Assembly (NCBI RefSeq): GCF_056712565.1
Contig: NZ_CM160072.1
Length of the DNA: 64,000 nt
Strand: one strand, 5' to 3'
In this document: piece after piece, positions 7,615-15,665 of the stretch
Layout: every line of letters begins with the position of its first letter
Position numbering within the stretch: position 1 is the first letter of the stretch
The notes under the pieces: model-generated
Databases searched by the model: none
Seen by the model: the letters and a program-made list of their open reading frames with translations, nothing else
Told to the model about the DNA's origin: nothing
Translations under genes and position numbers: made by a program

Positions 7615-10170
7615 TTACTGGAAGCAGGTCACCAGACCCGGTTTATTTATTAGCGTGATACTACAATCCTGCGCTCCAGTACCTTCGTCCATCCCACACT
7701 GTTGAGAGGACAAATAAGGAAAACTGGGTGAAGACGGCCATCCCAGTGAATTAAAAACAGTATGCAACAACTCTAATTCATTGTATGTCGGTGCATTTTC
7801 TATGCTGCCACACTGCCTTGCGATATCCCATTTACTGGCATCAATGATATGTGCAGAAGCCCAGTTTTCGTAGTTAATAATCGGTGAGGATACGGGATTA
7901 GCCCCGGACGGCAATTCCGTCGTTAACAACGGTCGATGTAGCGATTTACTATTCACCACTACCGTGTCTGCCATATGTCCCCAAAAGTGCGCCGATGAAA
8001 CATTTGGGCTGGTTGGCACCGTAAAAATAGCATCCAGCGTGTCTGTCGCGGAAGCGTAATTAGCCAGAGTAACCGTCAGTGGCATTTTATAACCAGGGGT
8101 ATTATCCTGGCGGAGCGTAAAACTTGCCGTCCCATCCGCGCCTGTCATGCCACTAATGGTATTACCGCTTTCACTCAGCGTAACAGCCGAACCTGATAAC
8201 GGCTGAACGACGAGATCGTCCATCGCCACTACATTGCCATACAACGTTGCCCCAGCGTTACGCGGCGATGCCTCACCACGTTTCAAAGTAAATTCAACAT
8301 TCGGCACCGTATTCCCGGCGCTGTCTTTCACCGTCACGGTAACGGACATGGCTTCGCCTTTTTTCACTTTCGCCGCCTGAGTGGCTGCATCAAACGCTGT
8401 TGAGGTAAGTGTGACGCTGGAAACCGTTGAACGCGCGTTAGCCAGGCAAGGCTGAAATGATTTTGTTGAACCCGTATACAGCGTGCCATTTCTCAAATCA
8501 ACCGACTGGTCTTTACCATCGGCGGATTTATCCTCTGCCCACCAGGTGTAATACGCAGGCCAGCCAGTTTCAGTGACAAACGTGTTATTCGGATAACGCG
8601 CAGACAACGAACTTAAATCATTGAATAGTGGCTGCCTTGCTACTTCACAAGGGCTCACACTCGCATCTGATTTCTGTGTTGGGGTAAAGTACGGCCAGTC
8701 TTCATTATTGTTATTGATCTTGCCGACGCCAGAAGTCGATGTCAGTTCACTCCACAATTTCGGGCGTTCAAATACCGCACCATTCACTGCCGTCAAGGTT
8801 GCTGGCATATGCCCCCAGTAGTTAGCCTTCGCAGAATCCGGGCTGGTCACTACCGTGAATATCAGGTCCTGATTAGCCGTAACCTGCGGATTTCGCGCCA
8901 ATGAAGCTGTAAACGGCGTTACCAGACCAACGGTGTTATTTTGGGTAACGTTGAACGTTATCGTGCCATCACTGCCGGTGAAGCCGCTCCATGCCGACGT
9001 ATTCTGGTTGAAGGAGATACGCGCCGATGTCGGGGTGACTTCATCTAAAATGAGATCATCTACGGTATTGGAGGATACAGAGATCCCTGAACGGCTTTTC
9101 GCCTGCACGCGCTTGAGCGTAACACCTTCGCCGCCAACAGGATTACCATTGGCATCTTTGATCGTCACCACGATGGGAAGCATCTCACCTTTTTTCACAG
9201 ATGACGTGGGGGTACCACCATTGCTGGCAGTTCGGCCCTCATCATAGGCAGTCGATGACAGCGTAAGGCTTGCTGGTGCCGAATGTGGCTGCGTCAGACA
9301 GAGCATTAAAGCGTATCCATTAATAGTCGTCGTCGATTGTCCCGTTTTCAAATTAATGACGCCGTAATACCACGTCAACGCGTCAGTGGTGCTCATTTCA
9401 TAAGTCCACCAATTTCCACTTCCGGCAGTTATAGGCAACCCCAAATCTGTCAGTATTGTCCCGCCTGGATGATCATTATATAGCCCCTGTAACTCATTGA
9501 GACGCGGCTGATACTCAACCGGGCAATCCGGCGTAACTTTATTGGTATAAAAAAGGTATGACCACGACTCATTATTATTACTTACCGAGGACCCCAAGGT
9601 CGCTTCTGCTGCCAGTAGCGGTCGTTTAAAGGTCACCCCCGCCCTACTGGTAAACGTGTCGGGCATATGACCCCAGTATTTTGCTTTCGGTGAGTTCGGA
9701 CTGGTTATCACAGTGAAAATAACATCCATCGTGGCACTTTTTGTGGTGTCGCGCATCAATGTTGCAGTGAGCGGAGTTGCCAGCCCATAAGTCTCGTTTT
9801 GCGTCACATCAAAAGTCGCTTTACCATCACTTCCTGTCGTCAGAAGTGCCTGTGCCCCATTATTATAGAGTGACATGTTTACTCCGGCAGGGGTGACCGG
9901 CACGATAGTAAGATCATCATACGTAGAATCTAGCCTGTTTTTTGCACGATCCAACGCAGTCCCGCGTATGAGATTAAAGTTTGCGCCTGGCAACAGATTT
10001 CCTCCGCTATCCCGCACAATCACCGTCATCCGGATCGCCGTACCTTTCGCCGCCGTTGCACTAGGGCGACCATCGTTGCTGGCCGTTTTCTCCGCATCCA
10101 GTGCCGTGGAGGTCATCTCTATAGAAGCTGCCACTGCATGAGGGTTTACCAGACAGGACACAAATGCCAC
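7615..10170 (-). CDS. ratA: C-terminal segment of the giant RatA-like Ig-like repeat protein; not an independent gene (no signal peptide, frame stays open upstream to about 10308)
   Basis: 851-aa track ORF beginning at an internal GTG. It carries 3 further copies of the repeat module (KYWGHMPDTFTSRAGVTFKRPLLAAE, NYWGHMPATLTAVNGAVFERPKLWSE, HFWGHMADTVVVNSKSLHRPLL). Its frame is open for 46 more codons upstream and that extension aligns with the repeat consensus. Confidence 0.7.
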   Translation of the reverse strand: MAFVSCLVNPHAVAASIEMTSTALDAEKTASNDGRPSATAAKGTAIRMTVIVRDSGGNLLPGANFNLIRGTALDRAKNRLDSTYDDLTIVPVTPAGVNMSLYNNGAQALLTTGSDGKATFDVTQNETYGLATPLTATLMRDTTKSATMDVIFTVITSPNSPKAKYWGHMPDTFTSRAGVTFKRPLLAAEATLGSSVSNNNESWSYLFYTNKVTPDCPVEYQPRLNELQGLYNDHPGGTILTDLGLPITAGSGNWWTYEMSTTDALTWYYGVINLKTGQSTTTINGYALMLCLTQPHSAPASLTLSSTAYDEGRTASNGGTPTSSVKKGEMLPIVVTIKDANGNPVGGEGVTLKRVQAKSRSGISVSSNTVDDLILDEVTPTSARISFNQNTSAWSGFTGSDGTITFNVTQNNTVGLVTPFTASLARNPQVTANQDLIFTVVTSPDSAKANYWGHMPATLTAVNGAVFERPKLWSELTSTSGVGKINNNNEDWPYFTPTQKSDASVSPCEVARQPLFNDLSSLSARYPNNTFVTETGWPAYYTWWAEDKSADGKDQSVDLRNGTLYTGSTKSFQPCLANARSTVSSVTLTSTAFDAATQAAKVKKGEAMSVTVTVKDSAGNTVPNVEFTLKRGEASPRNAGATLYGNVVAMDDLVVQPLSGSAVTLSESGNTISGMTGADGTASFTLRQDNTPGYKMPLTVTLANYASATDTLDAIFTVPTSPNVSSAHFWGHMADTVVVNSKSLHRPLLTTELPSGANPVSSPIINYENWASAHIIDASKWDIARQCGSIENAPTYNELELLHTVFNSLGWPSSPSFPYLSSQQCGMDEGTGAQDCSITLINKPGLVTCFQ

Positions 10171-13200: not shown

Positions 13201-15665
13201 TGCGATTGCTTAATTTCCACAGTCGCAAAACCCTGCGCATCCGTAGTACCGGCATAGACTAAAGACGGTTGCGATGTTCCGTAGAGTGTGCCATTCATCT
13301 CGATTGCGCCGCGGGTTGGATCATCAAAACCTGTAGTCTGCCCCTGACGATTTTTCCCCATATCTTTAGTAATGGTGAACGCGGTATACGGCACGGGTGC
13401 ATTATTCAAGGCATTAAAGGTGCGTACCGTCATGGTGATCGTGTCACCCACTTTGGCCTGCGCTCTGCTGCCTGCGGAAACATCACGATCGGTGGTCGCG
13501 GCAATCTGGGCGACCATCTCATTGCCCGAACAAGAGAGATAGTTTTGCTTAAAGCCGGAATAGGTGTCGATGTTGCCCGTGGCCAGGTTTACCGACGCGT
13601 GCGACGTCTCTTCCACCGCACTAAGATACGCTTTTTGCAACGTTGGCCAGCCATATTCGGTGCCGATGGCATTGGCTGGATGAGCGGCAAACAAACTGTG
13701 CAATGAACTTTGGCTCGGAATATGACCTAAACCACACTCAGCCTGCATACTGCTATTCTGATCAAACAGCGCCCAGTCTTCGTTATTTTCCCGCACCGAT
13801 CCCTGTTCGTTGTCGGTTTCATCCGCCAGCCGTGGGCGTTTAAAGATATTGTTCGCTTCAATAATGCCCAACATATGGCCCCACATCCGCGCTTTGTCGG
13901 TATCGGGGCTGGTGATCACCGTAAAAATAACGTCTTTCTCATCCGAGGCAGTAAAATCACTGCGCATTCTCGCGGTGATGTGAGTTTTCACCCCCACGCC
14001 GCCTGGCTGGGTCAGCGTCAGAGTGGCCTCTCCGTTAGCATCAGTGCTCCCTTCATAGGTATGGGCGTCAACTTTGCGAACGTTACTGCCGCCATCAATT
14101 TGTACCGGATGCGTCTCCCACGCGGCGTCAGTTTGATTCTTACGGTTAATGCCGTCATCCAGATGCAGCGAAAAGTAGTAGTAAGCCAGCGGCTGATCGT
14201 TGTTCTTGCTATCGGTAATCGTCAGACGTAAAGAAGCCTCTTCCCCCACCTTTACTTTCATCGCTTTTATCGTCGAATCATAGCTGCCCGGCGTCAGTAC
14301 CAGCTTCGGTTCAACATCGGGCGCTTCTTTATCGACACAGCTCACAATAAACGTCGTATCGTCCGGTTTTTGCGCTTCGCTGCGGTTCGAAACATCCGCC
14401 GCATGGTGCTGGCCGCTCATCCCCGCCAGTGATGACCAGTAGAAATTACCCTGCATCGGCCAACCAGCCACATCCTGCACTGACGTTGGCACCACCGTCG
14501 CCAGCGCACCGAACTGACGCATTCCGGGCAAAATGTCGCAATGTTTATCCGCGCCGCTCCAGGTAAAGGTGGACCAGGTTTCATTGTGATCGTTAACCGT
14601 ACCGCCTTCATTATCGACTTCCGCCGCCAGTTTTGGTCGACTAAAAGTGTAATCACGGGCCTTCAGCGTATCGGGCATATGACCCCACATTGTAGCCTGC
14701 GGAACATCCGGGCTGGTGAGGACGGTAAAGATCACTGCCGTTTCACTGGCCTGAGCAATACCCGCGAGGCTCGCGACCAACGGCGTTTTTACACCAGGGC
14801 CGTTGGCCTGGGTGACCGTAACCGTGGCAACACCATTCGCATCGGTAGTACCACGATATTCCGTCGCGGTGGTGGTTAATTCGGTCGTGCCCAGTTTTAC
14901 AGGCGCAGTATTGTTCACCACACCCTGGCGGTTTTCAGCATCTTTGCGTTTGATAACAAAAGGAATATTCCCCACAACATTACCGACGCAATCTTTGGTG
15001 GTGACCGTTAACGTGATACTGCCCCCAACCGTCATTTTCGCCGCACCTGAGGATTCGTCATAGCCCGCAGCGCTGACGGAAATAAGGTCACCCTGCGCGG
15101 GCGCAATCTTCAGCGTCACTTTCTGATCGGCGAGCATCAGAACACTTTCATAGGGATAGCCCGTCGAGGTGAGTAAATATAACAGCGGCATGGTCTGCTG
15201 GGGATCAGGCTGCGCCCAGGCGACCAGCGAACGCCCGGCAAGTCCCTGTGCACAAAACGAGCGATCTGCGACTGGCTGTGGGTCCAGTAAGGTGTCCGGC
15301 GTGGCGGCATCCGCCCAAACTAAAGATACAGCCGGTGGCGTTTGGTTTTCCCAACGTGGGGTGGCAATGATATCGCCTTCTCTGTCTTGCGGGTTGGTGA
15401 CGAGCAATTTAGAGACGCTAACATCCGCGTTGAATTCACTCGGTTTAGCGGTAAACGCTACCTCATGCGTCTTTGTAGGATCGAGAAAGACACTGCCCTG
15501 GTAGACGGGTATGCTGGCGCTGTCGGCGGTGGGCACGGTACCGTTAAATTCGCCGACCGTATCTGAAGAGTCTTGCCATGCAGATTCTGCCCATGACCAC
15601 CCAGGCAGCATTGCGCTTATCAGCAATGCGCATAACACAAGGATTTTATTCAGGGTCAGGGACAT
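10287..15665 (-). CDS. ratA: N-terminal segment of the giant RatA-like secreted Ig-like repeat protein, ended prematurely by a frameshift
   Basis: ATG at 15663-15665 with GGTGGAG upstream. Sec-type signal peptide [28 protein letters not shown]. 1792 aa containing 6 repeat modules, each a Big-like beta-sandwich stretch (KVKKGE...TLKR...TGADG...FT.KQ) followed by FTV.TSPD..KA..WGHM....F.RP.L..E. Ends ...[14 protein letters not shown] in mid-module. Confidence 0.75.

Follow-up and report, generated by a model that had tools for sequence, protein, structure and literature searches.

The stretch of DNA analysed here (64,000 nucleotides, hereafter the window) contains two long open reading frames (ORFs) on its minus strand, the translations of which repeat the string WGHM, and we asked which protein they encode and in what state. 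Sequence comparison indicated that the locus is 99.9-100% identical at the DNA level to a single 8052-nt CDS that hundreds of E. coli genomes carry, among them APEC O1 and many ExPEC genomes; its intact counterpart is the 2683-residue protein WP_000059879.1, encoded as one CDS in 548 near-identical E. coli genomes. The intact allele scored 5943.7 bits against the NCBIfam equivalog model NF011844 ("RatA-like protein"; curated cutoff 3870 bits) over positions 1-2683 of 2683, and the two ORFs taken alone matched successive parts of the same profile (upstream ORF, 4025.4 bits, positions 1-1790; downstream ORF, 1812.9 bits, positions 1834-2683). Judged by identity and architecture, the region almost certainly holds a gene on record for pathogenic E. 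coli, namely the ratA-like member of the sinH-sinI-ratA ("ila") island, the genes of which are named ratA, sivI/sinI and sivH/sinH in the literature (PMC3739510, PMC2941450, PMC12928451). The island, to which CS54 corresponds in Salmonella, lies between der/yfgJ and xseA, the neighbours of ratA being xseA, sinI, sinH and der. SinI and SinH scored 335.6 bits (NF040711, cutoff 165) and 1472 bits (NF033423, cutoff 999), respectively. A reading made from the sequence alone had distinguished an upstream and a downstream ORF; they are one 8052-nt gene, the frame of which is broken by a 1-nt deletion.

Table 1. Positions of the ratA-like gene, its parts and lesions, and the neighbouring sinI and sinH genes within the window.
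Feature	Position	Strand	Basis or remark
ratA-like gene	7615..15665	(-)	2683 codons when intact; here split into ORFs 10287-15665 and 7615-10170
Predicted Sec signal peptide, 26 residues then ES	15588..15665	(-)	read by eye; cleavage site inferred, not computed
RatA N-terminal motif, 16 residues, counterpart in SinI	15531..15578	(-)	hhalign
Rat-specific N-terminal beta-rich domain, residues ~27-205	15051..15587	(-)	
Module 1: BIg21 14718-15026, InvE_AD 14334-14711	14334..15026	(-)	Pfam
Module 2: BIg21 13914-14234, InvE_AD 13527-13907	13527..14234	(-)	Pfam
Module 3: BIg21 13113-13448, InvE_AD 12705-13103	12705..13448	(-)	Pfam
Module 4 (structure modelled): BIg21 12264-12611, InvE_AD 11844-12257	11844..12611	(-)	
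Module 5: BIg21 11412-11747, InvE_AD 10992-11405	10992..11747	(-)	Pfam
Module 6 (SNP and frameshift): BIg21 10560-10886, InvE_AD 10150-10553	10150..10886	(-)	Pfam, intact allele
SNP, module 6 TSPD Pro to Ser (TSSD)	10553	(-)	comparison with intact allele
1-nt deletion, gene nt 5371, codon 1791	between 10295 and 10296	(-)	comparison with intact allele
Module 7: BIg21 9706-10041, InvE_AD 9304-9699	9304..10041	(-)	Pfam
Module 8: BIg21 8848-9189, InvE_AD 8449-8841	8449..9189	(-)	Pfam
Module 9: BIg21 8017-8358, terminal InvE_AD 7618-8007 (protein end)	7618..8358	(-)	Pfam
sinI, 325 aa, SinI family autotransporter-associated protein, next gene upstream of ratA	15786..16763	(-)	NCBIfam and RefSeq annotation
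SinI N-terminal motif WVDSGETNIFQGTIP, counterpart of RatA motif	16620..16664	(-)	hhalign
sinH, intimin-like inverse autotransporter, first gene of the island	16818..19025	(-)	NCBIfam and annotation; RefSeq CDS start 18996

The intact 2683-residue protein is built from nine tandem two-part modules, as the sequence-only reading had proposed. Pfam searches identified nine BIg21 domains (PF05688, formerly DUF824; E 5.6e-19 to 2.9e-26) strictly alternating with nine InvE_AD domains (PF05689, Adhesion domain, formerly DUF823; E 1.5e-15 to 4e-40, model positions ~1-135 of 136), module 6 being read from the intact allele. Each module is an Ig-like domain rigidly joined to a C-type-lectin-like adhesion domain. 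The first sub-domain is therefore the Ig/Big-like beta-sandwich that had been suspected, and the second, which had been left without a family, is InvE_AD, just as the whole protein belongs to NF011844. WGHM occurs nine times on the minus strand, divided six to three between the upstream and downstream ORFs as originally counted; in the intact protein it is found at residues 327, 595, 863, 1145, 1429, 1713, 1998, 2284 and 2562 (spacing 268-286 aa), against 9e-4 copies expected from composition and never more than one in 20000 shuffles. The repeat boundaries held in a self-alignment of the nine modules over their full length (27-42% pairwise identity), with FT..TSP...A..WGHM, RP.L..E, E.W, Cys, G.P and Cys as invariant columns. 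The conserved Cys that had been noted was borne out, but the accompanying GWP motif reads GLP in modules 6 and 7. No tandem repeats were detected at the DNA level, where only motif-level echoes of 60-80% identity recur every 804-864 nt; the repeats are therefore old.

The RatA module matched the sequence of InvE (PDB 5N40) with an E-value of 3.7e-24. When module 4 was modelled with AF2 (pLDDT 94.5, pTM 0.87), the top Foldseek match was again 5N40 (E 7e-19, TM 0.75), so that the single-module prediction put forward in the earlier reading returned a known fold: the InvE_AD domains of RatA share the lectin-like fold of the founding structure. At the sequence level, the strings TSPD..A..WGHM, RP.L..E, E.W, Cys, GWP and Cys represent the family signature of InvE_AD, and they were equally conserved in single inverse-autotransporter tip domains and in Rat-like repeats. 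Neither the canonical motifs for calcium-dependent carbohydrate binding by C-type lectins (EPN or QPD, plus WND) nor the WIGL motif were present in any of the nine adhesion domains. The domains are therefore not classical C-type lectins, "lectin-like" describing a fold rather than a shown activity, and they resemble calcium-independent bacterial tip domains.

Ahead of the modules, the predicted signal peptide agrees with the secreted nature proposed for the protein; it has no canonical lipobox, and the Cys is absent from orthologues. The beta-rich domain of ~180 aa that follows is confined to Rat-like proteins. Immediately following the predicted cleavage site, a motif is common to RatA and SinI, of the pattern W-x(5-8)-T-x(2-3)-[IFLV]-x-G-T-x-P (hhalign probability 91.5%, E 8.7e-7). 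Pfam gave no IAT_beta match anywhere in RatA, which is therefore not itself an inverse autotransporter; the barrel is that of its neighbour SinH. RatA has neither a beta-barrel nor a recognised outer-membrane targeting signal, and no type 1 or type 2 secretion or transporter genes were found among its neighbours. A type 1-secreted repeat adhesin of the SiiE/LapA/RTX kind was rejected on account of the N-terminal Sec-type signal peptide (by eye) and the lack of adjacent transporter genes.

The sequence-only reading had also raised a metal site formed by the His and Cys of the conserved motifs, which would make the adhesion domains enzymes or metal-binding units with the WGHM His and conserved Cys as active or metal site. 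We regard this as very unlikely, because Tyr or Phe stands in place of the WGHM His in ~10% of 154 family domains, and crystallised InvE, with WGNM, has Asn there. Two Cys are conserved in each of domains 1-8, 67-75 residues apart (domain 9 has four), a pattern that, judged from the sequence, would suit a disulfide within a lectin-like domain of an exported protein; intimin and invasin have a comparable structural disulfide pattern. In the module 4 model the WGHM segment belongs to a beta strand that comes immediately after the inter-domain one, and this placement suggests a role in the core or interface. Nine tandem copies with Ig spacers are, moreover, the layout of an adhesin and not of an enzyme. 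The state of the gene raises a different alternative. The deletion falls inside the adhesion domain of module 6 and leads to a stop at 10287-10289, cutting the product after 1790 native residues and leaving five complete modules; in this window the NF011844 reading frame is interrupted, and the locus is a disrupted copy of the family. Two products might nevertheless be made, namely a functional truncated secreted RatA of 1792 aa and an independent 851-aa protein with the GTG at 10170 as its start. Each ORF is long and uninterrupted, the upstream one retains the signal peptide, the N-terminal domain and five modules, and natural Rat-like proteins with 4-7 modules exist. However, a signal peptide is missing from the downstream ORF, which opens midway through adhesion domain 6; its product could therefore be neither exported nor folded as a unit. 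The deletion is private to this sequence, being absent from all 559 E. coli genomes that matched a 201-nt stretch (548 at at least 99%; best match 99.5%), and it adjoins, in the same module, a damaging change of the TSPD Pro, a residue 100% conserved in the 154 family domains. Decay or sequencing error therefore fits better than a selected two-gene arrangement, which is very unlikely: either this copy became a pseudogene or a truncated allele recently, or its sequence contains errors.

How the intact protein leaves the cell bears on a last alternative, in which RatA is periplasmic only, a long glycan- or peptidoglycan-binding scaffold that is never surface exposed. This would agree with a predicted Sec signal in a protein that has neither beta-barrel nor lipobox, with the lack of adjacent type 1 or type 2 secretion genes, and with the similarity of the lectin-like fold to periplasmic and cytoplasmic FGE/EgtB-type domains as well. 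We nonetheless consider it unlikely. In passengers of inverse autotransporters, the distal tip exposed at the surface consists of this very two-domain module (InvE 5N40, and P0028, a true inverse autotransporter with two modules); at the loci examined, ratA always lies downstream of an outer-membrane translocator gene; and effects on colonisation are reported both for ratB, a paralogue, and for the ila island (PMC3680342, PMC12928451). Heinz et al. 2016 (PMC4943183), with ZirT/ZirS as their analogy, proposed that the co-encoded inverse autotransporter has Rat-like proteins as its substrates. SinH-dependent export or anchoring of RatA is a serious possibility that falls somewhat short of an even chance. 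It is supported by the conserved gene order, by SinH::Rat fusions, by the occurrence of the module in inverse-autotransporter passengers and by the motif common to RatA and SinI. The order IAT_beta, SinI-like, Rat-like was found at every Rat-like locus examined (L002-L009 and the window), although this linkage counts as one evolutionary observation and not several, because all these loci are orthologous and occupy the same chromosomal position. In-frame fusions of SinH(1-504) to Rat repeats were present on 16 contigs, and may be dead deletion products. The RatA/SinI motif, apparently not described before, could serve SinH as a signal for recognition or docking in the export or anchoring of its two barrel-less partners; we put this forward as speculation, rather doubtful as it stands.

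In the favoured reading, Sec would carry RatA to the periplasm, where each adhesion domain would form one disulfide; the protein would then reach the cell surface, or stay held there, with the aid of the barrel protein SinH and of SinI, and would serve in colonisation as a long lectin-like adhesin, multivalent and independent of calcium. RatA is probably a multivalent non-fimbrial adhesin, and the ligand-binding fibre first suggested for it is a reasonable reading. Two reports speak for such a role: according to the summary in PMC3680342, S. Typhimurium needs ratB to colonise the caecum, and UPEC from which ila genes were deleted is attenuated in a murine UTI (Shea 2022, summarised in PMC12928451). 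Against it, Salmonella ratA itself is given as having "no role in virulence" (PMC3680342). Collectively, an explanation combining RatA-like identity, modular architecture, an inferred export and adhesin role and a disrupted copy is very likely to be right.

The WGHM repeat is real but ordinary and adds nothing new: the gene, both repeat domains, the family models and the crystal structure of a homologous module are all already on record. The ila island is in use as an ExPEC/AIEC virulence marker, and SinH is currently explored as an ExPEC vaccine antigen (PMC9937491). Medically relevant questions are how a 2683-residue protein without a barrel would cross the outer membrane, what its nine lectin-like domains bind, and whether the vaccine candidate SinH acts jointly with RatA. 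The N-terminal motif common to RatA and SinI offers a concrete handle on the proposed SinH-dependent route; if it were a docking signal, the ila/CS54 loci would be type Ve "two-partner" systems displaying a ~280-kDa fibre with nine lectin-like domains.

Among known systems, Salmonella ZirT/ZirS/ZirU follow the same operon logic, a barrel protein being followed by barrel-less, signal-peptide-bearing Ig-domain proteins, and SinI matches the ZirU family (E 1e-6). Both Heinz 2016 (PMC4943183) and Goh 2019 (PMC6714894) drew this analogy; RatA, however, resembles neither ZirS nor ZirU in sequence and is about tenfold larger, and its secretion by SinH is hypothetical. The C-type-lectin-like tips of intimin (D3) and invasin (D5; PDB 1F00/1F02, 1CWV) show no detectable sequence similarity to the RatA domains, are unrepeated, and have ligands, Tir and beta-1 integrins, established for those proteins only. 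In Yersinia pseudotuberculosis InvE (5N40, the founder of Pfam InvE_AD), the distal tip is built from the same two-domain unit as the RatA module. As a true inverse autotransporter, InvE brings its own beta-barrel and ends in a single adhesion domain, whereas RatA has no barrel and carries nine along its chain; a 2020 review of Yersinia type V adhesins included InvA, Ifp, InvC and InvD, but not InvE (PMC7312957).

The Salmonella enterica CS54 proteins RatA and RatB (NF011843, NF011842, "DUF823/DUF824 repeat adhesins") likewise have the N-terminal Rat domain and alternating BIg21/InvE_AD domains, and their genes follow sinH-sinI in the interval from der to xseA. At roughly 40-50% identity to the E. 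coli protein, they are its paralogues or orthologues, with scores below the curated cutoffs of their models (2200 vs 4079 and 1958 vs 3700) and with different module numbers (1860 and 2435 aa, compared with 2683 aa). Salmonella often has two or more rat genes plus shdA (PMC3739510). The nearest relative is the E. coli RatA-like protein (NF011844/PRK15316; WP_000059879.1), the product of the third ila gene. The copy in the window differs from it by the base missing at codon 1791 and the P-to-S change in the module 6 TSPD, and is otherwise the same gene by synteny and end-to-end profile match.

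Translation of 7615-15665 gave two long ORFs on the minus strand, with six WGHM copies in the longer and three in the shorter. The DNA of the window is E. coli chromosome. In APEC O1 and hundreds of further genomes, a single 8052-nt CDS (WP_000059879.1, annotated as 'adhesion domain-containing protein') corresponds to the 8051 bases of this interval, with 99.9-100% identity. Direct comparison with the intact CDS placed a missing base at gene nt 5371 (codon 1791), between 10295 and 10296, and identified a single SNP in the gene, at 10553. The two ORFs thus represent one gene, disrupted in the window. 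The intact protein scored 5943.7 bits against the NCBIfam model NF011844 'RatA-like protein' (cutoff 3870), covering all 2683 positions. The genes upstream, in the same orientation, are sinI (NF040711) and sinH, which encodes an intimin-like inverse autotransporter (NF033423); the island is located between der/yfgJ and xseA. Scanning the operon for promoters and terminators was uninformative, with counts no higher than in shuffled controls. In the literature, the E. coli island (ratA, sivI and sivH, the 'ila cluster') is taken to correspond to Salmonella CS54 (PMC3739510, PMC12928451), and ratA figures as an AIEC/ExPEC marker (PMC2941450). Of 5426 complete E. coli genomes, 1736 (about a third) had a match, which in 936 of them spanned 80% or more of the region. 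Published tables (PMC3680342 Table 1; a table in PMC10812584) expand CS54 ratA to 'ribosome association toxin' or to 'RNA antitoxin A', names that belong to unrelated genes sharing the symbol.

The repeat architecture described by the sequence-only reading is real. In the intact protein, WGHM is found at residues 327, 595, 863, 1145, 1429, 1713, 1998, 2284 and 2562; 9e-4 copies are expected by chance, with a maximum of one in 20000 shuffles. The nine modules aligned with each other over their full length at 27-42% identity, and the alignment reproduced the invariant columns originally listed from the sequence alone. At the DNA level, echoes between modules were motif-sized, 60-80% identical and 804-864 nt apart, and no tandem repeats or recent duplication were found in the gene, so the duplication of the module is ancient. 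In Pfam searches, BIg21 (PF05688) and InvE_AD 'Adhesion domain' (PF05689) each matched nine times, strictly alternating along the protein (E 1e-15 to 4e-40); in the names of the NCBIfam RatA/RatB models these families appear as DUF824 and DUF823. The second sub-domain, initially thought to be unplaceable, thus belongs to a named family, InvE_AD. One module matched the Yersinia pseudotuberculosis adhesin InvE (PDB 5N40) at E 3.7e-24, and an AlphaFold2 model of module 4 (39 aligned modules as input; pLDDT 94.5, pTM 0.87) retrieved the same structure as its top Foldseek match (E 7e-19). InvE displays the same motifs as the RatA modules, with WGNM where RatA has WGHM. Residues 27-205 of RatA form a beta-rich domain conserved only among Rat-like proteins, for which neither a Pfam match nor a relative of solved structure was found. 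The object is therefore a catalogued gene made of named domains, for which a homologous structure has been solved; the original observation stood, and its interpretation was partly right.

A metal site formed by the His and Cys residues of the conserved motifs had been suggested. Using one adhesion domain as a query against 1.84 billion representative proteins, only 158 matches were recovered, corresponding to two architectures: Rat-like proteins with 2-9 copies, the first always near residue 320, and InvE-type inverse autotransporters, which are long and have one copy at the C-terminus. Across 154 domains, TSPD, A, the G and M of WGHM, RP.L..E, E.W and GWP were 90-100% conserved, equally in both architectures. 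The His of WGHM was 90% conserved over the same domains and otherwise replaced by Tyr or Phe. Since this residue is not invariant in the family and is Asn in InvE, a metal or catalytic site at WGHM is unlikely and was rejected on family conservation. In the module 4 model, G-H-M forms a short strand immediately after the strand joining the Ig and adhesion domains. We read the signature residues as determinants of fold and interface, some of which may lie in a ligand site; family conservation argues that WGHM is a family signature rather than a special site. Membership of the classical C-type lectins was likewise rejected because the calcium/sugar motifs EPN, QPD and WND are absent from the adhesion domains. 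Two Cys residues, at a spacing of 67-75 residues, are present in each of domains 1-8 and four in the terminal domain, a pattern compatible with a structural disulfide in an exported protein.

The deletion was further analysed by searching a 201-nt query across the site. None of the 548 copies recovered at 99% identity or more matched at 100%, so the deletion is private to the window sequence. Outside the prophage end, only three positions in 22 kb differed from the closest complete genome, APEC E16002. Two of these three, the SNP and the frameshift, are in module 6 of ratA; the SNP changes the Pro of TSPD, invariant across the 154 family domains, to Ser. Both changes are damaging. Their co-occurrence suggests either that selection on ratA is relaxed in this strain or that the sequence contains local errors, and the disruption itself reflects either recent decay or a sequencing error. 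Over 25 kb, 30 of the 33 differences from the closest genome (32 substitutions and a 1-nt deletion) were found in the prophage end. This lambdoid prophage end (1-2900, beside guaA) also encodes a PerC-family regulator and an MT-A70 methyltransferase. Elsewhere in the window, the ORF following pbpC had no NCBIfam match at 1e-20; it is probably the alpha-2-macroglobulin YfhM, partner of PbpC. The 1124-aa ORF had no match at the same threshold and may be YphG.

Features of the window and of related loci carrying SinH::Rat fusions
Feature	Location	Strand	Remarks
Longer ratA ORF	10287-15665	minus	1792 aa
Shorter ratA ORF	7615-10170	minus	851 aa
RatA motif	15531-15578	minus	
SinI motif	16620-16664	minus	
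Tyrosine integrase	1453-2703		in prophage end
pbpC	28605-30917	minus	NF008414, 1567 bits
1653-aa ORF	30918-35879	minus	follows pbpC
1124-aa ORF	57411-60785	minus	TTG start
SinH::Rat fusion P0010	L007 8001-12851; L008 1296-6146		
SinH::Rat fusion P0021	L010 8001-10709		

RatA and SinI have a motif in common, W-x(5-8)-T-x(2-3)-[IFLV]-x-G-T-x-P, located just after their predicted cleavage sites; the SinI stretch is EDSAWVDSGETNIFQGTIP. Considering true N-termini only, the motif was present in 15/15 Rat-like proteins and 16/16 SinI homologues. Profile-profile comparison of the two groups (hhalign) aligned exactly the 24-column motif stretch (probability 91.5%, E 8.7e-7). No further occurrence was found in a six-frame translation of the 64-kb window or in SinH. 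The motif residues had low confidence in the AlphaFold model, indicating that they do not pack against the domain. Two variants, an Escherichia type ('AE..W..S..T..F.GT') and a Salmonella/Citrobacter type ('LK.G.WQ....TG.I.GT'), are each represented in RatA as well as in SinI; within a genome the two proteins seem to co-vary in type, as judged from a very small number of independent lineages. The motif could be a common targeting or docking signal, and is a candidate export or docking signal for SinH. A literature search of limited reach found no published description of it.

RatA has a signal-peptide-like N-terminus, and no beta-barrel, lipobox or nearby transporter genes. Its nine rigid Ig-plus-lectin-like units are of the same kind as the surface-exposed tip of InvE, and RatA probably forms a multivalent, calcium-independent lectin-like adhesin fibre. 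In every Rat-like locus fetched, the barrel gene is followed by the SinI-like and then the Rat-like gene, an order that counts as one observation because the loci are orthologous. The RatA-type module is an established component of type Ve passengers; the LysM-barrel-invasin protein P0028, for example, ends in two such modules. There are also natural fusions in which SinH residues 1-504 continue in frame into Rat-type BIg21/InvE_AD modules, one of them (P0010) on 16 contigs. The SinH part, comprising the barrel and proximal passenger, is 72% identical to the window SinH, and the fusions lie in the same der-xseA locus. These fusions could be either deletion scars or functional, self-exporting variants. 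In L010, the truncated fusion gene is followed by a Mu-like prophage. The Rat N-domain showed no similarity to SinH when their profiles were compared, and SinI had no match among PDB sequences. Gene order, the use of the module in type Ve passengers, the fusions and the common N-terminal motif are comparative evidence that links RatA with SinH and SinI, and we tentatively propose that RatA would be exported or retained via this pair. Export route and ligand are matters of the whole Rat/SinH/SinI system rather than of this window.

Salmonella RatA and RatB are more distant from the intact protein than the RatA-like family NF011844. In secondary summaries, caecal colonisation is reported to require ratB and Salmonella ratA to have no role (PMC3680342), and PMC12928451, citing Shea 2022, describes attenuation of UPEC in mouse UTI upon ila gene deletion. 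By analogy with ZirT/ZirS, Heinz et al. 2016 (PMC4943183) proposed that the co-encoded inverse autotransporter takes Rat-like proteins as its substrates, and the same export idea was raised for IatB/SinH by Goh et al. (PMC6714894).
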